Below are positions 509-54,955 of a DNA stretch of 64,000 bases, piece after piece (position 1 is the stretch's first letter; every line of letters begins with the position of its first letter). The notes beneath the pieces are model-generated. The model did not search any database and was not told the origin of the DNA. It worked only from the letters and a program-made list of their open reading frames with translations. Origin of the DNA: Candidatus Magasanikiibacteriota bacterium (lineage in GTDB: Bacteria; Patescibacteriota; Patescibacteriia; Magasanikbacterales; UBA922); assembly GCA_003518365.1 (NCBI GenBank), contig DOYU01000021.1, positions 492 through 64,491 on the forward strand, in the 5' to 3' direction. The translations under genes and the position numbers were made by a program.

Positions 509-1021
509 TTACTCTGCTTTCTTTTCTTCTTCAGCTGGAGTTTCCTCAGCAGCAAGAGCTTCCTCTGCCTTTGGCTCTTCAACAGCTGCAGGAGCTTCAC
601 TTGCAGCTGCCTCCGCAGCCTTTGCTGCTTCTTCAGCTTCTCGTGCTGCTTGTTCTTCCGCTTCCTTCGCTGCTTTTGCAGCTTCTTCTGCCTTGCGTTT
701 TGCTTCTACGGCAGCATTTTTTACTGCATCGATCTTTCCTTGTCGTTTCTGTGAGATACTGACTGCTTTCTTTTTGTCGCCAGTCAAAATTCCTTCGCGA
801 ACAAACAAGTTGTGCACGGCTTCTGATGGAGTCGCACCTTGTGCGAGCCAGTGCTTGATGCGATCTGTATTGAGTGATACTACTTTTGGATTTGCGACAG
901 GGTTGTAGTTGCCGAGAATCTCGAGCGCACGTCCCTGTGTGTCGCGAGCATTTTCTGAGATCACCAATCGGTAACTAGGTGATTTTTTTCTTCCGATGCG
1001 TTGAAATCTAATACTAAGCAT
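509..1021 (-). CDS. rpsP: 30S ribosomal protein S16 with a C-terminal Ala/Glu/Lys-rich low-complexity extension of about 90 aa
   Basis: MLSIRFQRIGRKKSPSYRLVISENARDTQGRALEILGNYNP is the canonical S16 N-terminus. The ORF track extends to 1054 (MIGLFTSFNDIM...), but the conserved start is the internal Met at 1021. The tail KAEEAAKAAKEAEEQAAREAEEAAKAAEAAA is low complexity. Confidence 0.85.
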   Translation of the reverse strand: MLSIRFQRIGRKKSPSYRLVISENARDTQGRALEILGNYNPVANPKVVSLNTDRIKHWLAQGATPSEAVHNLFVREGILTGDKKKAVSISQKRQGKIDAVKNAAVEAKRKAEEAAKAAKEAEEQAAREAEEAAKAAEAAASEAPAAVEEPKAEEALAAEETPAEEEKKAE

Positions 1022-6274: not shown

Positions 6275-6435
6275 CGGAATCCTCCGGTGATGCGGTCTCA
6301 CGATGTACTTTACTACAGCATTTCTGCAGCAAGCACGATCGAATGAACCGCACCACCAACATGTTCTCTTGCATTGTAAAAAGCATGTCAAAAGAGGTAC
6401 TTGTGTCCTATTTTGAACGGCTGAATATAACATAA

Positions 6436-6565
6436 AAACACACTTTTGTCAAGTGTATAACTAAAAAAATTGCCTTATGTTAGCAATTTTCTTCTTTTTT
6501 AGAAGTTTGCAAACAGTCGACGCAGCGCACTCCGAAGAGCGCGCCGCGTCGACCGCGAAGAAAGA
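6436..6565. repeat. Duplicated 3'-flank segment of the lipoprotein cassette, copy a
   Basis: TTTTGTCAAGTGT...AAAAAATTGCCTTATGTTAGCAATTT...GCGCAGCGCACTCCGAAGAGCGCGCCGCGTCG aligns with 7240-7370. Ends in a GC-rich hairpin. Confidence 0.6.
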
Positions 6566-7102
6566 TCAGATGCCGTCTTGCCATCCGGGGTCGTAGACCA
6601 CTTGAATGGTGTACCTGCTCCCAGGTGTCCAGTCGTAGATGGGAAATCTCAGCTTTGGTGAGGTCTCGACACCATCATTGACTCGCAGGAGAAATTTGAA
6701 CATGAGGTTGTGGGACACGAGTTCGAGTGTCACACCGCCATTCATAGGGGGCGCGACCATCAGCTCGACCTCGATCTCTGCACCTTCAAGGAGCTGAAAA
6801 TCGAAGATCTCGTTACTCGCGAGATACTCATCGAGCGTAGGTCCCTCTTCATCACTCACATAGTACTCTCCATGAAAGAACCAAATGGGAGCGACCTCCC
6901 CATCCGGCAGGGTGACCGTCACCTTCCACACACCATTGGCCCAGAGAGAAGCGAAGGCTCCTTCTCCACCATAATGAAAGGTGATGCTTGGCTCAGAGGA
7001 ATCTTCCTCCTGCGGAATTTCCACATCTGGAAGGATGGTGGTGTCACAGCCGCCAGAGCTGTAGACGAAACCGAACAGAGCGAGAAAGATAAGTGCGTGC
7101 AT
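6566..7102 (-). CDS. secreted lipoprotein, paralog 2 of 3
   Basis: MHALIFLALFGFVYSSGGC signal/lipobox with GAGGT SD. Shares ...LDEYLASNEIFDFQLLEGAEIEVELMVAPPMNGG... with paralog 3 (LDGYLAENEFLDFELTEGQTIHVELIESPPENGA). Confidence 0.55.
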   Translation of the reverse strand: MHALIFLALFGFVYSSGGCDTTILPDVEIPQEEDSSEPSITFHYGGEGAFASLWANGVWKVTVTLPDGEVAPIWFFHGEYYVSDEEGPTLDEYLASNEIFDFQLLEGAEIEVELMVAPPMNGGVTLELVSHNLMFKFLLRVNDGVETSPKLRFPIYDWTPGSRYTIQVVYDPGWQDGI

Positions 7103-7239
7103 GAAATACCTCAGTGTGAATGCGACCATTCGTCAACGTACGGGACCACCCCGCACGTAAACGTATCAATCACATCCACATGACGTTGATCTTTCAAACG
7201 TATGATACCATACGTTTGACAGTAAAAAATAGCAGAAAA

Positions 7240-7376
7240 AACAATTTTGTCAAGTGTCCAAATAAAAAATTGCCTCATATTAGCAATTTCAAATATTTTT
7301 CAAAAGTGAAGCGAAGCGGCCGGCGCAGCGCTGCAACTCCGAAGAGTGCGCGCCACGCCGGTCGCAAGGTGAGAGA
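7240..7376. repeat. Duplicated 3'-flank segment of the lipoprotein cassette, copy b
   Basis: ACAATTTTGTCAAGTGTCCAAATAAAAAATTGCCTCATATTAGCAATTT...GCGGCCGGCGCAGCGCTGCAACTCCGAAGAGTGCGCGCCACGCCGGTCGC. Confidence 0.6.
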
Positions 7377-7895
7377 TCAGGAGCAGGTGCCGTCCGGCAC
7401 GAGCTCCACGAAGTAGGCACGAGGTTCACCCACCGATGTGTAGATGGGCAGATAACACGTGGGCACTCCCCGGTTATTCGTGAACTGATACGCCTGTTGA
7501 TGGGAGACCAAGGTCATCTGCTCGGCACCATTCTCTGGTGGAGATTCGATGAGCTCGACATGGATGGTCTGTCCCTCTGTCAGCTCAAAATCCAGGAACT
7601 CATTCTCCGCCAGGTAGCCATCCAGCTTCCCGGCATCTTCATCAAGGACTTCGTACGGTCCAAGAGAGCGCCAAATCGAAGCAGCAGACCCGTCCGGATT
7701 AAGAACGCTGATCTCGCAGGCTCCTCGGCACCAAAAGGTTCCAAAGTTCTTCTCTCCGAGGTCATGCACTACAACTTTTGCGCCGTCTGCCTTCCCGACC
7801 TTTGGTGTGTCGGATATGCCCTCAATGTCCACATCGCAACCACCAATGAAGATGGCGACCAGCGCAAGAATCATGGTGATAATCGTGAGATGCAT
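7377..7895 (-). CDS. secreted lipoprotein, paralog 3 of 3
   Basis: GGAGGA SD upstream of the ATG at 7895. MHLTIITMILALVAIFIGGC signal/lipobox. Homologous to paralog 2. Confidence 0.55.
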   Translation of the reverse strand: MHLTIITMILALVAIFIGGCDVDIEGISDTPKVGKADGAKVVVHDLGEKNFGTFWCRGACEISVLNPDGSAASIWRSLGPYEVLDEDAGKLDGYLAENEFLDFELTEGQTIHVELIESPPENGAEQMTLVSHQQAYQFTNNRGVPTCYLPIYTSVGEPRAYFVELVPDGTCS

Positions 7896-8190
7896 CGCGT
7901 CCTCCATAGAAGTATGAATACGACCATTCGTCAGCGTACGGGACCACCCCGAACACAAACGTATCTGCCGCATCCATACTTCTGTGATCTCTCAAAAATA
8001 TCATATCAAACTAGGAGTATTTTTCCTAGTTTGAATAGATGAAGATAGCGTATTTTGCGACGTTTGTCAATATATTAAATATCTGGCTGTATTGCTTACG
8101 CATGTTTCATTGTCAAATTGTTACATTGTTATATTGTTGATGATATTAAATAGATTGATATATGATAATTGTTATTTGCTATCTGAAATG

Positions 8191-8875: not shown

Positions 8876-9175
8876 TTCACGAGTCACTTAACACGTAGCA
8901 CGAAACAATCTTACTCTGAACGGGAGGAAACCTTGCCAGGCAAGACTACGCTTCGCTAAGATTATGTTTCACCTACGGTGAAACAAGATTGAAGATTACT
9001 TCACAAAAAGAAGGACATGCATGATATGCATGTCCTTCTTAGCATGTAACATAATCTTCAATCTTTTTTGCCGTAAGGCAAAAGTAATCTTAGTGGAGCG
9101 AAGCGAAACGCAATCTTACGTTGCACTAGGACACACGTTGTCACATACTATGTGACTCGTGTCTCGTGAACTACG
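8872..9175. repeat. Imperfect palindrome of about 300 nt with nested hairpins; possible MITE-like or structured element
   Basis: Centre is the perfect 15-bp-stem palindrome AAGAAGGACATGCAT-GAT-ATGCATGTCCTTCTT (about 9011-9043). Arms share CGCTTCGCT, AAGATTA and AAGATTGAAGATTA. Arm sub-hairpins differ compensatorily (TTCACCTACGGTGAA vs TTGCCTTACGGCAA). Termini are GTTCACGAG...CTCGTGAAC. Confidence 0.55.
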
Positions 9176-36758: not shown

Positions 36759-37283
36759 ATGGCTGCAACGCAGGGAGATATCGAACAACTCTTCATGACA
36801 CTCTACGACACGTATCAAGATGCGATTTTTCGGCATTGCTATTTTCGTGTCTATCATCGAGAGATTGCAAAAGAGCTTGCGCAAGAAGCATTCATGAAGG
36901 TCTGGAACTATCTGCAAAAAGGAAATACACTCGAACACCCCAAAGCATTTCTCTATAAAATAGCGACAAACACAGTCATCGACTACCGGCGACGAAAAAA
37001 AGAACAATCACTGGAACAACTCCAAGACACAGGATTTCAAATCGCTGATACCGATCGAATGGAAGAAACCGTGGACGGGAATATGGCCATGGCACACCTC
37101 AGAGAAGTCCTCGACACGCTCGAAGACATCTATCGCGAAGCCTTTCTCTTACGCTATATCGAAGGATTGAAACCAAAAGAAATCGCCGTGATGACTGGCG
37201 AAACCGTGAATGTCATCTCAGTAAGAATCACAAGGGCAAAACGTCAGGTACAGCAGAAGATGAAACACATCCCAACGGTATGA
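36759..37283 (+). CDS. ECF-type RNA polymerase sigma factor (sigma-70 regions 2 and 4)
   Basis: LFMTLYDTYQDAIFRHCYFRV...AQEAFMKVW (region 2.1-2.2); LRYIEGLKPKEIAVMTGETVNVISVRITRAKRQ (region 4 HTH). Confidence 0.8.
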   Translation: MAATQGDIEQLFMTLYDTYQDAIFRHCYFRVYHREIAKELAQEAFMKVWNYLQKGNTLEHPKAFLYKIATNTVIDYRRRKKEQSLEQLQDTGFQIADTDRMEETVDGNMAMAHLREVLDTLEDIYREAFLLRYIEGLKPKEIAVMTGETVNVISVRITRAKRQVQQKMKHIPTV

Positions 37284-38626
37284 AAAAGCTACACAAACAA
37301 TTGAACCATGTCAGATTGACAAAGCAAGAATCGGCAGATATGCGTGGTGAGATGTTGTCATACATGAAAGAACACCCAGCAGCGGTAAGTCCTGTAAGAA
37401 AATCTGATCCTATCCGACATAGTATGGGTATAGGGAAACACTTCCCTATACGCTTACTCGTAACACACAATCGTATGTTTGCAGGAATCTTACTTGCCAT
37501 TGTGGCAGCACTCAGTGGAGGGACCGTATTTGCAGCACAAGGAGCATTGCCAGGAGATATGCTGTACCCAATAAAAGTGAACGTCAACGAAGAAGTACGT
37601 GGTGCCTTCACATTGAATACAGAAGCAAAAGTCGCATGGGAGACTACCCTTGCAGAACGTAGATCACACGAAGCAGCAACACTTGTGACAGAAGGAACAC
37701 TTGACGAAGACGTCGCAGCAGACCTTTCAGCCAGGCTCGCAACACATCTTGACAAAGCCGAATCGCTCATGGCAGAGCTGGAAGCAAAAGGAAATCTGGA
37801 AGCCGCTGCCAATGCCCAAAGTAGACTGGAAGCGTTATTGAACGTCCAACAACGCATCTTCCAATCACTTGAAGATGACGCAACCGCTGACACAGAAGAC
37901 AACACCACTACAAGCACTACAACCACAACAACGTCAACAGATACTGACGACGAGGATGATGATACAAATGATGACAATCGAAAAAATGTGTCATCAATCA
38001 CCCATATCCTCGACGCACTCGAACATAAAGCTGATGTTCAAGAACGGGTGAGAGCAGACTACGCAGACAAACTTGAGGAAAAAGATGAAGACGACCGAGC
38101 TCGTACGCTCGCTCAAACAAAACAAGTCACTGAAACAAAAATTGCAACCACAGAAAAAATCCTTCTCGCATTTGAAGAAAAAAATGGCGCACGAACAGAA
38201 GCACACACAGCATTTAACGCAGCTGTCAAGGTAAAACAAGAAGCTGATCAAAAACTTCTTGCAAAAGAATACGGCGATGCATTTGAACTCTATCACAAGG
38301 CGCAAACCATGCTTGATCGCGTTCATCTCTTCTTACGCACTTCAGCCGCTATTGGGATTGATCTCCAGATAGACACTGATCGTGATGACGACGGGGACGA
38401 CGACCGAAATCGATCAGACGAAAAACGTGAAGATGTGAATGATGAAGATACAGACGACGAGCAAAATGCTGATGATGCAGACGAGAAAGAAGATGAAGAG
38501 AAAAATGATGATGATACTGATGAAGATGACGCACTCAATATTGAGATAGAAACCGACGCACTTCTCGATATTGACGACAAAGAGACACGCAGCGAATCAA
38601 AGAGTCGCGTGAACATTGGATTGTAA
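37280..38626 (+). CDS. DUF5667-type membrane protein, anti-sigma-like, with a long acidic low-complexity C-terminus
   Basis: ATGA overlap with the sigma gene. A single TM (AGILLAIVAALSGGTVFA) followed by GDMLYPIKV (DUF5667-like), coiled coil, and D/E/T-rich repeats. Confidence 0.55.
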   Translation: MKKLHKQLNHVRLTKQESADMRGEMLSYMKEHPAAVSPVRKSDPIRHSMGIGKHFPIRLLVTHNRMFAGILLAIVAALSGGTVFAAQGALPGDMLYPIKVNVNEEVRGAFTLNTEAKVAWETTLAERRSHEAATLVTEGTLDEDVAADLSARLATHLDKAESLMAELEAKGNLEAAANAQSRLEALLNVQQRIFQSLEDDATADTEDNTTTSTTTTTTSTDTDDEDDDTNDDNRKNVSSITHILDALEHKADVQERVRADYADKLEEKDEDDRARTLAQTKQVTETKIATTEKILLAFEEKNGARTEAHTAFNAAVKVKQEADQKLLAKEYGDAFELYHKAQTMLDRVHLFLRTSAAIGIDLQIDTDRDDDGDDDRNRSDEKREDVNDEDTDDEQNADDADEKEDEEKNDDDTDEDDALNIEIETDALLDIDDKETRSESKSRVNIGL

Positions 38627-38727
38627 ATAACAATTTTTACATGATAAACCACTTGCATTCATGCTGGTGGTTTATATTTACGCTCGTTCTAATTCTATGG
38701 ATGCTTTTGATAACGGCTACAAGTAAA

Positions 38728-38868
38728 CAAAGGGTTTTGAGGGGGAAGCTGTTCGAGCCTCATCGCTTGTCAATGAGTACTTTATTAGCGCCGACACAGG
38801 CGAGTTCTTCCCCCCAACACTTTTTGTTACTTTTTGGTGACAAAAAGTAAGGAAAGAAGTGACTTACA
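38728..38868 (+). repeat. Structured intergenic repeat element, copy 1 (about 140 nt)
   Basis: About 85-90% identical to 54775-54912. Internal pairings GAGGGGGAAG/CTTCCCCC and the terminal hairpin TTACTTTTT-GGTGAC-AAAAAGTAA. Compensatory differences occur between copies. Confidence 0.65.
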
Positions 38869-39001
38869 GTGGGTGACCTAAAAATTTGTTTACAGAATAG
38901 ACTCTCATATACTGAATGACGTTCAAACGTGCAGCATGTTACTTTCTCACGATTCTATCGTATACTATAGTAGAAGCATACAAAAAGATATCTTTTTCCC
39001 C

Positions 39002-39571
39002 ATGAACAACACACATATACAGCGTTGGGCCGATGCCGCATCACACGGAGATCGTGAAGCTTTTGGTCGTCTCTATGATCTGTATATCAAAGAGATCTAT
39101 CGCTTTGTCTATTACAAAACACATCACACACAAACGGCAGAAGATTTGACTGCAGATATTTTTGTCAAAGCAATCAAAAATATTTCCTCATATGTTCACA
39201 CCCACGGATCCTTTCGCACATGGCTCTATACCATCACGCGAAGTGCAGTCATCGATCACTATCGGACACAAAAACATGATTCGCCCATAGAAGATGCATG
39301 GGACATCGTGCCAACAAAAGATACCACACAACAAATCCATGCACGCATAGAGATAGATCAGCTCAAACCGTATCTGGCACAATTGTCATCAGAACAGCGA
39401 GATATTCTTGTTCTCAGGCTATGGCAAGCAAAAAGCTATAAAGAAATAGCAGACATCCTCGGCAAAAGTGAAGCAAGCTGCAAAATGGCATTCTCCAGAT
39501 CTCTCAAAACACTTCGTGACAACATGCCCCTTCATCTCTTCCTCATGTTTCTTACCACTCCATTCTTATGA
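39002..39571 (+). CDS. ECF-type sigma factor (second copy)
   Basis: WADAASHGDREAFGRLYDLYIKEIYRFVYYK...DIFVKA (region 2), LRLWQAKSYKEIADILGKSEASCKMAFSRSLKTLR (region 4). Start trimmed to 39002. Confidence 0.8.
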   Translation: MNNTHIQRWADAASHGDREAFGRLYDLYIKEIYRFVYYKTHHTQTAEDLTADIFVKAIKNISSYVHTHGSFRTWLYTITRSAVIDHYRTQKHDSPIEDAWDIVPTKDTTQQIHARIEIDQLKPYLAQLSSEQRDILVLRLWQAKSYKEIADILGKSEASCKMAFSRSLKTLRDNMPLHLFLMFLTTPFL

Positions 39572-41067
39572 AAAAAATACATACATTTCTCAAAGAACTC
39601 TACGCCATCGATCCAACGCTGAAAGCGCATGAAACAGAACTCATCATACTCCTCACGCGCATGCTCGAACAAAAACCAGACGTACATATCGACGACGCAT
39701 TTGTATCCTCACTTCGAAAACGACTTGTGGGGACACCGGTACCGTCATCACCTTCATTCTTCACGCATCTTTTTATGAACAAACAACCAGCCTTCATTGC
39801 AACAGGTGCAGTCCTCTCGCTCGCGTTGCTCGTGGGTGTCTATCACTATGGCACGACACGTACAGGCATGATCTCAGGAGGCCAATTTGCTTCGATCTTT
39901 TCACCAAATGAGGTCGTCCACAGAAATGCAGGAGCCTTTGGTGTGCTCTCGTCAACAGAAAGCGCTGCCGCACCGACAGCAGAATCAGTCTCCTTTGATA
40001 CCAGTATGCTCAGCAGCCGTATGCCAGCAGATACGGTGGTCGGCATGGGTGGCGATGGCGTGGATGCAAAGATGATGATCGCGCCAGCACCATACCGCTA
40101 CACATACACGTATACTGGCGAGCCGCTCGAGCTCACTGACACCACGCTCCCAGTCTATCGACGCATCGTGCCAACGAATGCATCACAGGCACTCGGTACA
40201 CAACTCAGCAATGTCGGCACAGGTCTTGTCGATTTGTCCTCATTTGGCACACTGCATGCAGAAACGATTTCTATCTATGACAACGAATATCGTATCACTA
40301 TCGATATTGCCAATGGGCAAGCAAGTATTTATGAAAATTACGACAATCGACAGGACATCTATCGTGAAGCCACAGAAGCAGACATGTTGCCAGAACAACA
40401 ATTGATCGACATCGCAGATGCATTTTTACGCGCACACAATATCAGCACAGCGGGTTATGGCACACCAGTCGTAGATATGCAGTGGAAAACAGTGCAAGCA
40501 AAGCAAGAAACTGCTGATGCAGCATACCAGACGTATATTCCAAATATCATCACGATCATCTATCCATTCCAGCTCGAAGATCATACTGCGCATGACTATA
40601 GCGGATTGCCAGAGGGCATGCGTGTGAATGTCGACATCTTCACAAAAAAAGTAAATAATGTCTCAAATCTCATGGCAGGAGGATTTGAAGCATCAGACTA
40701 CGATGTGACGACAGACAGTAGCCGCGTGATCTCACTTGCAGAGCAAGGTGGACTCAACATGTATCCATGGTATGCAGAAGAGTCAGAAGAACGAATCCTC
40801 GAGCTCGGCACGCCAACGCTCGTCTATATCCAGCACTACTTGCCACAGGAAGGCAATGCACGTTCGTACGAAGTGTTTATCCCTGCACTCCAATTCCCTG
40901 TACAAAATATCCCAACAGATGAACCATTCTACAGCTCACGCATTATCACGATCCCGCTGGTCACCAATATTCTCGATGAAGAAAGAGACCGCCCGATCCC
41001 TACAGAACCACCGATCCTCCTGATGAAAGATGGTGCAGAGCCGGCAGTGGAACCTGCGGTAAGATAA
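39568..41067 (+). CDS. membrane-anchored protein coupled to the ECF sigma (anti-sigma candidate)
   Basis: ATGA overlap with the sigma gene. One TM (AFIATGAVLSLALLVGVY), then a large extracytoplasmic domain. No family recognised. Confidence 0.45.
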   Translation: MKKIHTFLKELYAIDPTLKAHETELIILLTRMLEQKPDVHIDDAFVSSLRKRLVGTPVPSSPSFFTHLFMNKQPAFIATGAVLSLALLVGVYHYGTTRTGMISGGQFASIFSPNEVVHRNAGAFGVLSSTESAAAPTAESVSFDTSMLSSRMPADTVVGMGGDGVDAKMMIAPAPYRYTYTYTGEPLELTDTTLPVYRRIVPTNASQALGTQLSNVGTGLVDLSSFGTLHAETISIYDNEYRITIDIANGQASIYENYDNRQDIYREATEADMLPEQQLIDIADAFLRAHNISTAGYGTPVVDMQWKTVQAKQETADAAYQTYIPNIITIIYPFQLEDHTAHDYSGLPEGMRVNVDIFTKKVNNVSNLMAGGFEASDYDVTTDSSRVISLAEQGGLNMYPWYAEESEERILELGTPTLVYIQHYLPQEGNARSYEVFIPALQFPVQNIPTDEPFYSSRIITIPLVTNILDEERDRPIPTEPPILLMKDGAEPAVEPAVR

Positions 41068-51995: not shown

Positions 51996-52059
51996 GAAAT
52001 CCCCATCGACAAATTACGTTTGCCAACAATGTTCATCATAATGTATGTACATTACAGCA

Positions 52060-52133
52060 ACCCTCTTCCCTTAAGCTGTTTGTCCCGATTTGATCGGGAT
52101 TGGTGACAAAAAGTAAGGGAGGAAATAAAAAAC
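52060..52133 (+). repeat. Structured intergenic repeat element, short variant (copy 3)
   Basis: Shares AAGCTGTTT and TTGGTGACAAAAAGTAAGGGAGG with copies 1 and 2. The middle is replaced by a TCCCGAT-TTG-ATCGGGA hairpin. Confidence 0.5.
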
Positions 52134-52173
52134 GTTCGCCATATCAGCAAACGTTTTTACTATATCATGAATA

Positions 52174-53322: not shown

Positions 53323-53449
53323 ATGATTAATTACAGAATGATGTTAGTAGTGCAAAGACTATACAGGATTGCGGGAGATTTGTCAATACACACATAAAGG
53401 GAAGAGCCTCCATTGATTTTTGGCTCTATTATGCTATCCTCTGTCATAT

Positions 53450-54700
53450 ATGAGAGTAGCCATCGTAGGTGGAGGCGCCGCTGGCATGATGTGCGCCGCA
53501 ACTATCGCAGAGGAATATCCACATGTGGAAATCTTTGTGCTCGAAAAAAACGCCTCTCTTGGCAAAAAAGTCATTATTTCCGGTGGTGGGAGATGTAATG
53601 TTACGACCGGTATAGAAGACATTGCATTGGTACTCGAAAAATATCCTCGCGGCAATAAATTTCTCCAATCTGCCATGCATCGATTTTCTCCGAGCATGGT
53701 CTATGCTTGGTTTGAAGCACATGGCGTTCCACTCAAATGTGAAGACGATTTGCGAGTGTTTCCCGTATCAAATAATGGGAAAGATATTGTGGCGGTGTTT
53801 GAAGATATATTTGAAGAAGCAGACGTTCACGTCAAATATAAACACAATGTACAAGATATAACAAAAAAAGAAACAGGATTTGTTCTTTCTTTCAAAGATC
53901 AAAATGATCTCGAGGTAGACAAGGTCGTCATGGCACTCGGTGGACAAGCGTATCGTCACACCGGATCTACTGGCGACGGATATTATATCCTCGAACAATT
54001 GGGACACACAATCACTCCCCTTGCACCAAGTCTCAATTCTTTTTTGACAAAAGAATCCTGGCCAAAAGAACTTTCTGGCCTTTCATTTCAAAAAGCAACC
54101 ATTTTTGTACACGGACAAAAAAAACAATATAACAGTACCGGCCCATTTCTCTTTACCCATACTGGTGTCAGCGGCCCGGCAGTGTTTGCACTGTCTTCTC
54201 GAATTGCATTTCTTGACTATGACAAAACGAATCCACTCGCAATACAGATAGATGTCTTTCCAGACCAGACAGAACAAGAACTTCTTGAAAGACTTCAACA
54301 AACGAGAGAAGAACACATGCAAAAAACATTCAAAAATACGTTACCCCACTTGGTAGCGAAGTCACTTGCAGAAGAAATGTGTATCCAACTCGATATTCCC
54401 CTCGATAAAAAAAATGCCGACATGAGTAAAAAAGAATTGGCACGTATCGCAACATATGTAAAAGGAATACCACTCGAAGTAATTGGACGCGGTGCAGGAG
54501 ATGAATTTGTGACTGCCGGTGGCGTCGAACTCACAGAGGTCGACCCAAAAACAATGGAATCAAAAATATGTCCTGGACTGTACTTTGCAGGAGAAATTCT
54601 TGACGTCGACGGCTATACAGGCGGATTCAACTTACAAGCGTCTTGGGCAACTGGGAATGCTGCGGGTATAGCGATTGGAAGTAATGTGCCATTAGCCTAA
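53450..54700 (+). CDS. FAD-dependent oxidoreductase of the HI0933/BaiN/YhiN family
   Basis: VAIVGGGAAGMMCA (dinucleotide-binding), GGGRCNVT, and the HI0933-like C-terminus GEILDVDGYTGGFNLQASWATG. Start trimmed to MRVAIVGGG at 53450. Confidence 0.8.
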   Translation: MRVAIVGGGAAGMMCAATIAEEYPHVEIFVLEKNASLGKKVIISGGGRCNVTTGIEDIALVLEKYPRGNKFLQSAMHRFSPSMVYAWFEAHGVPLKCEDDLRVFPVSNNGKDIVAVFEDIFEEADVHVKYKHNVQDITKKETGFVLSFKDQNDLEVDKVVMALGGQAYRHTGSTGDGYYILEQLGHTITPLAPSLNSFLTKESWPKELSGLSFQKATIFVHGQKKQYNSTGPFLFTHTGVSGPAVFALSSRIAFLDYDKTNPLAIQIDVFPDQTEQELLERLQQTREEHMQKTFKNTLPHLVAKSLAEEMCIQLDIPLDKKNADMSKKELARIATYVKGIPLEVIGRGAGDEFVTAGGVELTEVDPKTMESKICPGLYFAGEILDVDGYTGGFNLQASWATGNAAGIAIGSNVPLA

Positions 54701-54774
54701 ATACCAACAATTTTGGATTTGTCACCATGACCATGACGTCTGACATTAATTTGAATTACGAAAAACATTTCTTC

Positions 54775-54912
54775 TTATCCAAGGGGTTTTAAGGGGAAAG
54801 CTGTTTGAGCCTAAGTGCTTGCCAATGAGTATTTTCTTAGCACCGACACAGGCGAGTTCTTTCCCCTAACACTTTTTGTTACTTTTTGGTGACAAAAAGT
54901 AAGGGAAGAAGT
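54775..54912 (+). repeat. Structured intergenic repeat element, copy 2
   Basis: AAGGGGTTTTAAGGGGAAAGCTGTTTGAGCCTAAGTGCTTGCCAATGAG...CACAGGCGAGTTCTTTCCCCT...TTACTTTTTGGTGACAAAAAGTAAGGGAAGAAG. Stem AGGGGAAAG/CTTTCCCCT against copy 1 GGGGGAAG/CTTCCCCC. Confidence 0.65.
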
Positions 54913-54955
54913 ATATATATTATTATCTGAAACATCTTTCTTAAAAAAGAAAGTA

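Follow-up and report, generated by a model that had tools for sequence, protein, structure and literature searches.

A family of folded non-coding RNAs in Magasanikbacteria-like bacteria, possibly encoded by a relocating small RNA gene

The subject of this analysis is a structured intergenic element of 131 nt that recurs on the forward (+) strand of a 64,000-nt stretch of contig DOYU01000021.1 (assembly GCA_003518365.1, positions 492 to 64,491; hereafter the window), which stems from a Candidatus Magasanikbacteria genome from Rifle groundwater. Two intact copies, both of the subtype designated A1 below, occupy positions 38729-38859 (c1) and 54781-54911 (c2), and a third, 5′-truncated copy lies at about 52050-52127 (c3). 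The 17-mer GGTGACAAAAAGTAAGG is common to all three: it occurs exactly three times on the + strand of the window, at 38836, 52102 and 54888, against a chance expectation of 0.16 matches with up to three mismatches permitted. In line with a preliminary description of this DNA, all copies are found in one orientation downstream of + strand genes, at distances from the preceding open reading frame (ORF) of 103 nt for c1 (ORF end at 38626), 81 nt for c2 (54700) and 65 nt for c3 (51995). The two full copies, described there as about 85-90% identical, align without gaps at 89% identity (38728-38860 versus 54780-54912). Outside these limits no alignment of their flanks is possible, which rules out a recent segmental duplication with identical flanks as the origin of the pair. 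The sequence of c2 is identical across six assemblies of the same species. Compared with dinucleotide shuffles, the single-sequence folding energies gave z-scores of -3.3 (c1), -2.6 (c2) and -4.1 (c3).

Homologues of the element were collected with two exact-pattern scans directed at different parts of it. The first, covering one genome per species with the 19-mer TTGGTGACAAAAAGTAAGG as query, returned seven loci, five of which are full-length homologues, while the remaining two (L009 and L011) are chance matches to TTGGTGACAAAAAGTAAGG within ORFs. The second, run on Joint Genome Institute (JGI) metagenomes with the pattern GCGAGTTC-N9-13-CACTTTTTGTTAC, returned 12 loci, all of them genuine. 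Deduplication left 12 distinct full-length cores, i.e. c1, c2 and ten others from independent genomes and metagenomes, in addition to a variant that differs by one base (L025) and a copy cut off at the contig end (L018). The divergence between c1 and c2 equals that to the copies of other organisms (88-92% identity). Covariance models, which the preliminary description had recommended building from the copies, were constructed from the homologues and assign 118-148 bits to every member, with 142-144 bits for c1 (E about 1e-36) and 141-142 bits for c2. When the window was scanned with filters off, c1 and c2 were the only intact matches, c3 scored 7 bits, and matches on the minus strand comprised the near-palindromic hairpin alone (15-17 bits).

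None of the RNA models in Rfam accounts for these sequences. At the gathering threshold, Rfam 15 recognized only three tRNAs in the whole window, and three tRNAs were the sole hits of an ARAGORN search for tRNA and tmRNA genes. Around c1, relaxing the threshold to E values up to 10 yielded unrelated eukaryotic or enterobacterial models with a best E value of at least 0.66. Of five other representatives searched at E up to 1, four (L010, L012, L017 and L021) had nothing over the element, and the overlap with mir-166 in the fifth (L015) is attributed to chance (24.7 bits versus a gathering score of 60; E = 0.056). Literature searches on non-coding RNAs of the candidate phyla radiation (CPR) or Parcubacteria, and on the literal hairpin sequence, retrieved nothing relevant. 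The element is a member of an undescribed family of folded non-coding RNAs, without a match in Rfam.

From 5′ to 3′, the RNA begins with an (A/U)GGGG run, followed by a helix of 10-13 bp (P1) that leads into an asymmetric, invariant internal loop (5′ side CUGUYUGA, with one extra nucleotide in type B; 3′ side GAGUU), a short invariant helix (P2; GC(C)/(G)GC) and an apical domain. Within and beside the loop, UGU and GAGC are invariant in the 12 distinct sequences. The apical domain is variable in sequence and harbors locally covarying stems, and has a fixed length of exactly 45 nt (all type A members) or 43 nt (type B). Beyond P1 follow a 3′ hairpin, ACUUUUUGUUACU-UUUU-GGUGACAAAAAGU, whose 13 bp include two G·U pairs and which is invariant in 13 sequences, and the tail (A/C)AGGRAAGAA. 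The P1 strands read GAGGGGAAAG/CUUUCCCCUC in type A and CCGGGGUGACUG/CAGUCACCCNGG in type B, two unrelated sequences that are each complementary. Subtype A1 comprises c1, c2, L019, L021 and L012, subtype A2 comprises L010, L015, L020 and L024, and type B comprises L007, L008 and L013. The tail motif AGGRAAGAA is conserved in A1 and B and absent from A2, and inspection of the homologue sequences revealed no conserved start codon after it.

In c1, the 5′ strand of P1 (UUGAGGGGGAAG, 38737-38748) is partnered with positions 38807-38818, as judged from the fold of the arms and the pair counts in the family. The 5′ side of the internal loop (CUGUUCGA, 38749-38756) conforms to the consensus if this is written CUGUYYGA to allow for c1. 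P2 (GCC/GGC), invariant in the family, and the 45-nt apical domain that it surrounds map to 38757-38801, the 3′ loop side GAGUU and the 3′ strand of P1 (CUUCCCCCCAAC, with GCGAGTTC invariant) to 38802-38818, the RNAalifold-predicted 13-bp hairpin with its UUUU loop to 38819-38848, and the purine-rich, Shine-Dalgarno (SD)-like tail AAGGAAAGAAG to 38849-38859. The corresponding parts of c2 are P1 at 54789-54800 and 54859-54870, the 3′ hairpin at 54871-54900 and the tail at 54901-54911.

The register of the 3′ hairpin differs from the one first proposed, in which 9-10 bp were capped by a GGTGAC or GUGA loop, the latter a GNRA tetraloop. Three members (L015, L018 and L025) carry a self-complementary insertion of 20 nt exactly in the hairpin loop, and c3 carries one of 13 nt at the tip. 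Since these insertions fit the 13-bp form only, we assign the register ACUUUUUGUUACU/GGUGACAAAAAGU; the earlier one, including its tetraloop, is impossible in L015, L018 and L025. In the apical domain, a pseudoknot (NGCU/AGCN plus UUGYCA/UGRCAA) was considered and both of its helices have some support, but with linkers of 0 and 1 nt their simultaneous formation is implausible. The internal loop could form tandem G·A pairs beside P2 (5′-GA-GC...GC-GA-3′). Compared by eye with the K-turn, box C/D, T-arm, group II domain 5 and hammerhead motifs, it fitted none of them. Strict junction nucleotides, freely covarying helices, few copies and a patchy distribution are a pattern of the small-ribozyme class, so that the RNA might be catalytic, be it a new self-cleaving ribozyme or of another kind, with the internal loop as active site and the covarying stems as scaffold. 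We judge this very unlikely, given that all evidence for it is circumstantial, that conserved tertiary pairing was not detected and that no ribozyme model in Rfam was resembled even at permissive E values.

Comparison of the copies argues for selection on structure, as the preliminary description had concluded. The arms of P1 differ between c1 (GAGGGGGAAG/CUUCCCCCC) and c2 (AAGGGGAAAG/CUUUCCCCU) and yet remain complementary in each, and the covariation noted earlier for the inner stem can be read directly in the sequence (CGCU/AGCG in c1, GUGCU/AGCAC in c2), with a further version in L012 (CCGCU/AGCGG). Pairs were counted on a model-based alignment of 13 sequences, which was itself fitted to the structure. 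Of all cells at the proposed pairs, 96.5% were standard, as compared to 46-55% in controls in which the partners had been slid by 1-3 columns. Both sides had changed at 8 of the 13 P1 pairs (22 cells), and the observed covariation score was attained by none of 500 shuffles. The 3′ hairpin contains two G·U pairs, and others are found in the inner stem (L019, L021) and in P1 (L020, L024). As these would read A·C on the opposite strand, they point to the + strand as the functional, folded RNA strand. The preliminary description had further suspected a switch-like alternative fold, in which the C-rich strand pairs with the tail. Such a duplex is strong in c2, L019 and L021 (-9.6 to -9.9 kcal/mol), and the predicted fold of c3 joins what is left of its C-rich strand to the tail. 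In c1 and L012, however, the pairing is weak, and A2 and B lack it, so that it is not a family-wide feature.

Aligned to c1, c2 and L015, c3 is colinear only with the 3′ half of the element. It retains the last part of the apical domain, a remnant of the 3′ strand of P1, the 3′ hairpin, the exact 19-mer TTGGTGACAAAAAGTAAGG and the tail GGGAGGAAA, whereas the remainder outside TTGGTGACAAAAAGTAAGG has diverged and the TTACTTTTT arm once ascribed to this copy is missing. Being restricted to the 3′ half and scoring 7 bits with the family model, c3 is a real copy, but a truncated and decayed one and not a short variant by design, as which it had been introduced. A bidirectional intrinsic terminator called by a terminator scan (52128-52158) directly follows it. 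In relatives, the spacer at this site, between the genes for a GFA and a DUF1189 protein, holds the bidirectional terminator alone, which argues that c3 was inserted between stop codon and terminator and decayed later.

Could the element instead be conserved for a peptide? Translation of a small protein from a leaderless mRNA, or of a type I toxin, would proceed from an AUG at the G-run to a TGA or TAA in the 3′ hairpin. Indeed, all A2 copies have the frame ATGGGG...TGGTGA open (37-47 aa, with TTG as the start in L020), as do the type B copies L007 and L008 (36 aa, fairly hydrophobic). However, four of the five A1 copies, including c2, have no start codon for it, and in c2 a stop interrupts the frame as well. 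The frame is closed or startless in c2, L012 and L013 and, by our own reading, in the other A1 copies, with L013 having ACG in place of ATG plus an internal TGA, and c1 is open solely from a chance ATG at 38641 in the terminator of the upstream gene. The A2 and B peptides are unrelated except at their ends, the invariant UGUUUGAGC falls in different frames in the two groups, and most substitutions within A2 alter the amino acid, and do so radically (L to R, C to R, S to W). Coding would also leave the compensatory changes in P1 unexplained. With the ORF absent or interrupted in A1 and L013 and the frames differing between A2 and B, we dismissed a type I toxin-antitoxin or small-ORF function as barely credible; from the sequences compared, the conservation of the element is not protein-coding. 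A 69-aa ORF (38641-38850) that overlaps c1 is closed in c2, and the frames of A2, L007 and L008 (36-47 aa) could be reported by gene callers as spurious small proteins.

The genes surrounding the element are housekeeping genes (recQ, recR, photolyase, pdxS/pdxT, folD, rarA and sigma factors), and no protein family recurs next to it across loci beyond the local synteny of relatives. Of 11 loci, 7 have a convergent gene next to the element. The four with a co-oriented gene downstream encode a sigma factor, PdxT, FolD and a dCMP deaminase there, functions unrelated to one another, and on these grounds we rejected a riboswitch or other cis-regulatory 5′ leader. Nor is the element an intrinsic terminator, another of the functions first offered for it: neither hairpin is followed by a U-tract (the 3′ one is followed by AAGG), and a terminator scan called nothing inside c1 or c2. 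Terminators do lie 3′ of the element in c2, c3, L007, L010 and L013, many of them bidirectional and common with the convergent gene. At c2, an AU-rich hairpin (CUUUCUUAAAAAAGAAAG, 54936-54953) found by our own scan is a possible bidirectional terminator towards the convergent rarA, although a stricter tool does not call it, and c1 has no downstream terminator of its own. On the 5′ side, the gap between upstream gene and element contains a hairpin plus U-run, identified by eye, in c1, L007, L013, L020 and L024. The one at c1 (38648-38679, + strand; ACCACUUGCAUUCAUGCUGGUGGU UUAUAUUU) likely separates the upstream gene from the element, although a strict consensus scan does not call it. In L007, a promoter (TTGGTC-17-TATAAT) ends 7 nt before the G-run, and L008 and L025 show weaker sigma-70 promoter matches in the right place, with a background rate of 5%. 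Independent transcription of the element is plausible on this evidence.

Alternatively, the element might act in cis, as part of a 3′ untranslated region (3′-UTR) or intercistronic segment co-transcribed with the preceding gene, and serve as a message stabilizer or donor of a ribosome-binding site in the manner of ERIC, BOX and Correia repeats. This would account for an upstream gene that, where visible, is always co-oriented and ends 19-103 nt before the element, for the position of c2 and c3 between stop codon and terminator, for a copy between pdxS and pdxT (L008/L014), for the SD-like tail and for the lack of a consensus promoter ahead of c1 and c2. However, the spacers are convergent in 7 of the 11 loci, where orientation is uninformative, and the tail is missing in A2 and at least 15 nt away from the sole adjacent start codon (L008). 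In addition, a simple stabilizer needs neither an invariant internal loop nor a hairpin of invariant sequence. As a 3′-UTR function, which the preliminary description had listed, is possible in itself but has the terminator-like hairpins ahead of the element in c1, L007, L013, L020 and L024 against it, we consider a cis-acting role quite unlikely.

Two of the loci deserve mention for their gene content. c1 lies between two consecutive modules (36759-41067), each consisting of a gene for an extracytoplasmic function (ECF)-type sigma factor and a long downstream ORF: in the first, the sigma factor gene (36759-37283) is followed by one for a DUF5667 protein with an extremely acidic tail (37280-38626), and in the second (sigma factor gene at 39002-39571) by one for a 499-aa protein without a Pfam match. 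The two modules may represent a tandem duplication of a sigma/anti-sigma unit. L010 is the sole locus at which the nearest upstream neighbor is something other than a co-oriented protein gene, with a divergent tRNA gene (886-972, minus strand) about 165 nt upstream of the element.

The hosts of the family, ultra-small CPR bacteria from groundwater and marine settings, are labeled Magasanikbacteria, Parcubacteria and Saccharibacteria. L012 (contig CAZSWB010000110.1) is labeled as a Saccharibacteria metagenome-assembled genome (MAG), but encodes a VanW-like protein that matches its counterpart in the window genome at 61% identity along the entire length, and the contig is probably mis-binned or mislabeled. 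Between the type B host L013 and the A2 host L024, S1 and GyrA are 77-79% identical. On the basis of these values we rejected horizontal transfer across phyla; as the host proteins are closer than the labels suggest, the family looks restricted to one clade of Magasanikbacteria-like CPR bacteria.

Within this clade, copies are few and their positions inconstant. One to three copies were found per contig sampled: the window holds two intact copies and a relic, with none in the next 9 kb, and one marine MAG has two copies on two large contigs, against a single copy at each fetched locus elsewhere. Relatives whose RarA is 85-90% identical conserve the gene order but have no copy in the 17-19 kb around rarA. 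L020 and L025 are syntenic, with proteins 65-91% identical, and have the element at different sites, i.e. in the recR-rplU spacer in L020 and about 4 kb away by a glycosyltransferase gene in L025, each site being empty in the other genome; this occupied-versus-empty comparison shows no target-site duplication or sharp boundary. Sequence beyond the core is in part conserved as well. L020 and L024 have a whole convergent spacer of about 415 nt in common (78% identity) although the flanking genes differ, and L007 and L013 have the core plus downstream terminator in common (193 nt, 80%). In addition, 20-45 nt upstream of the core are conserved within subfamilies despite differing flanking genes. 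In the comparison of c2 with the unlinked copy L021/L022, this stretch amounts to about 36 nt (54745-54780, + strand; blastn, 86.8% over 174 nt, 54745-54917 versus L022); it is a possible promoter region, with no consensus sigma-70 match. As a side observation, relatives (L026-L030, 85-90% RarA identity) have neither the HI0933-like flavoprotein gene nor c2 (53420-54911, both on the + strand) in the interval from rarA to rpmG (L33); gene and RNA may have been gained or lost jointly. An island between c1 and c2 with the copies as attL and attR was rejected, since the order of rarA, rpmG, DUF1189, GFA and ABC-F is kept in relatives devoid of the element.

The differing sites of L020 and L025, the absence from syntenic loci of relatives with 85-90% RarA identity and the spacer common to L020 and L024 would equally be expected of a non-autonomous mobile DNA cassette, MITE-like (miniature inverted-repeat transposable element) or selfish and without host function. 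Its P1 arms would be co-evolving inverted repeats for a transposase or recombinase acting in trans, and its hairpin a protein-binding or recombination site. The insertion of c3 between stop codon and terminator, its presence in the window as a decayed copy and the copy inside the pdxS-pdxT operon are compatible with such a cassette. By our own reading, the hairpin as DNA moreover has the layout of a tyrosine-recombinase core site, with inverted arms of 12 bp on either side of a 6-bp spacer. Yet for a mobile repeat the copy number is very low (two intact copies and one relic in 73 kb). The inverted arms are internal, leaving a 3′ domain with 45 nt of the most conserved sequence outside them, and neither a duplication nor a clean insertion boundary is visible; a MITE in the strict sense was discarded for these reasons. 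By Pfam annotation, no transposase, integrase or reverse transcriptase is encoded within 10 kb on either side of c2 and c3, and none is among ten selected neighbor proteins at c1, L007, L010, L012 and L021. Three patterns matched 14 times in the viral contigs of IMG/VR, with every match failing the covariance model, and BLAST searches of phages and plasmids gave no match. The G·U pairs and bulges of the stems suit a folded single strand better than duplex repeats, and the central 20-nt insertion in the hairpin of three contigs would wreck a recombination core while sparing the RNA helix. An integron attC site was rejected separately, the GTT...AAC arms being in the wrong order and the interior conserved. 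All in all, a mobile cassette devoid of host function is, in our estimation, an unlikely explanation; neither it nor the cis-acting element excludes a function at the level of the RNA.

The reading we prefer, and regard as an even call, is that of a lineage-restricted, structured small RNA gene on the + strand that relocates. From its core of 131 nt, a transcript of about 170-190 nt would result if transcription extended to the next terminator, and at some loci at least the RNA would be transcribed alone, in the order upstream terminator, about 50 nt, RNA and terminator. P1 is free to vary in sequence provided that pairing persists. Together with the apical domain it would form a scaffold, on which the invariant loop, hairpin and tail would offer contact surfaces for a trans-acting partner, be it a protein or the 30S subunit via the anti-SD sequence. 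The function would then be regulatory, or lie in the formation of a ribonucleoprotein (RNP), as opposed to cis control of a neighboring gene. Whereas structure and strand are demonstrated, the trans-acting role is what we infer. Among the functions put forward in the preliminary description, a small RNA (sRNA) is the best fit.

Several observations weigh against this preferred reading. Independent covariation events are few: most of the double changes stem from the single split between types A and B, with further independent ones in c1. P2 and the 13-bp hairpin are invariant, so that covariation neither supports nor contradicts them, and the apical domain lacks one consensus fold. Matches to a consensus sigma-70 promoter were seen only at L007, L008 and L025, with none for c1, c2 or the other copies. 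In L008/L014, the element begins 19 nt after the stop codon of pdxS and ends 10 nt before the ATG of pdxT, a placement that looks like an intercistronic insertion and would be hard to reconcile with a roomy independent gene. Finally, patchy presence and relocation among relatives with 65-91% protein identity are also expected of a selfish element.

We further considered a self-contained RNA gene cassette of about 200-400 bp (promoter region, structured RNA and terminator) that would relocate within and between genomes of a CPR lineage without a linked transposase, its RNA either having a new catalytic activity or serving as the RNA subunit of an unrecognized RNP specific to these ultra-small symbionts. 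This appears rather improbable to us. The element is a new RNA family of a familiar kind, with no evidence for a new mechanism as yet. Its interest lies partly in the hosts. CPR bacteria (Patescibacteria) make up a large share of bacterial diversity with tiny genomes, and to our knowledge almost none of their non-coding RNAs beyond the universal ones has been characterized. A structured RNA that streamlined genomes keep in more than one copy, and whose locus relocates, is probably needed or unremovable, and it is unusual for a low-copy RNA gene to relocate with no mobility gene in sight. The family is a concrete target for surveys with covariance models, for mapping of metatranscriptomes and for probing in vitro, and a database entry would stop such spacers from being annotated as empty or as spurious small ORFs.

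Besides the element, the window and the related contigs contain other features. A dense palindromic intergenic region at 8950-9110 of the window comprises the hairpins gtttcacctacggtgaaac, gaaggacatgcatgatatgcatgtccttc and ttttgccgtaaggcaaaa, with AAGATTA/TAATCTT motifs repeated between them. It has no Rfam match; positions 7169-7270 of L019, a contig that also carries a copy of the RNA, align with it in both orientations at 83% identity across 88 nt. Direct repeats about 800 bp apart (6435-6489 versus 7236-7289 and 7113-7213 versus 7911-8011; 78-92% identical; families D3, D6 and D13) suggest that a small gene unit was duplicated in tandem along with its terminator-like hairpin (AAAAAATTGCC...GCAATTT). 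About 7-10 kb past the 3′ end of the window (L045, 17108-20234) lies a type IV secretion- or conjugation-like cluster with a TraG P-loop protein, a TraC-like protein and PrgI. Upstream of the type B copy in L013, G+C content is abruptly high at 6900-8000, with no clear long ORF; this segment could be foreign or reflect a chimeric contig.

Among known systems, the ends of IS200/IS605 elements, the palindrome-associated transposable elements (PATEs) and the omega-RNA (reRNA) of TnpB resemble the element in having a conserved scaffold in an RNA of about 130-150 nt that ends in a hairpin and is followed by flanking sequence. However, no tnpA or tnpB gene lies beside any copy, the left-end hairpin is absent, leaving one conserved terminal hairpin, and what follows the scaffold is AGGRAAGAA, conserved in A1 and B, instead of the variable guide of an omega-RNA. 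Repetitive extragenic palindromes (REPs), their composite elements (BIMEs) and the associated transposases (RAYTs) are likewise structured intergenic repeats, with REPs recognized as folded single strands. A REP, though, is a palindrome of 20-40 nt with a conserved GTAG head and very many copies, and the RAYT gene is typically flanked by REPs, whereas the element is 131 nt long, asymmetric, without a GTAG head and present in few copies per contig sampled. The REP/RAYT-like or IS200-associated identity once considered for it is therefore at odds with both copy number and anatomy, and the proposed search for a RAYT gene, conducted at the copies only, found no Y1 or other transposase within about 10 kb.

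The element also resembles the ERIC/IRU, BOX, RUP and Correia repeats, which are likewise about 100-150 bp long, intergenic, often located between stop codon and terminator or within operons, conserved across species, capable of stable RNA structure and variably present at a given site. Such repeats number from tens to hundreds of copies, and each is essentially an imperfect palindrome or has inverted repeats at its termini. The element, by contrast, is found in one to three copies per contig sampled, is asymmetric and has strand-specific G·U pairs. Multi-copy sRNA families, e.g. Qrr1-5 of Vibrio, Yfr2-5 of marine cyanobacteria and LhrC1-5 of Listeria, are like the element in comprising a few unlinked intergenic paralogues of about 100-200 nt, in which invariant blocks stand beside variable stems, often with a terminator of their own. 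The element differs from them in lacking any sequence or model similarity, in a position that is not conserved between related genomes, and in that its invariant part is a long double-stranded hairpin in place of a single-stranded seed.

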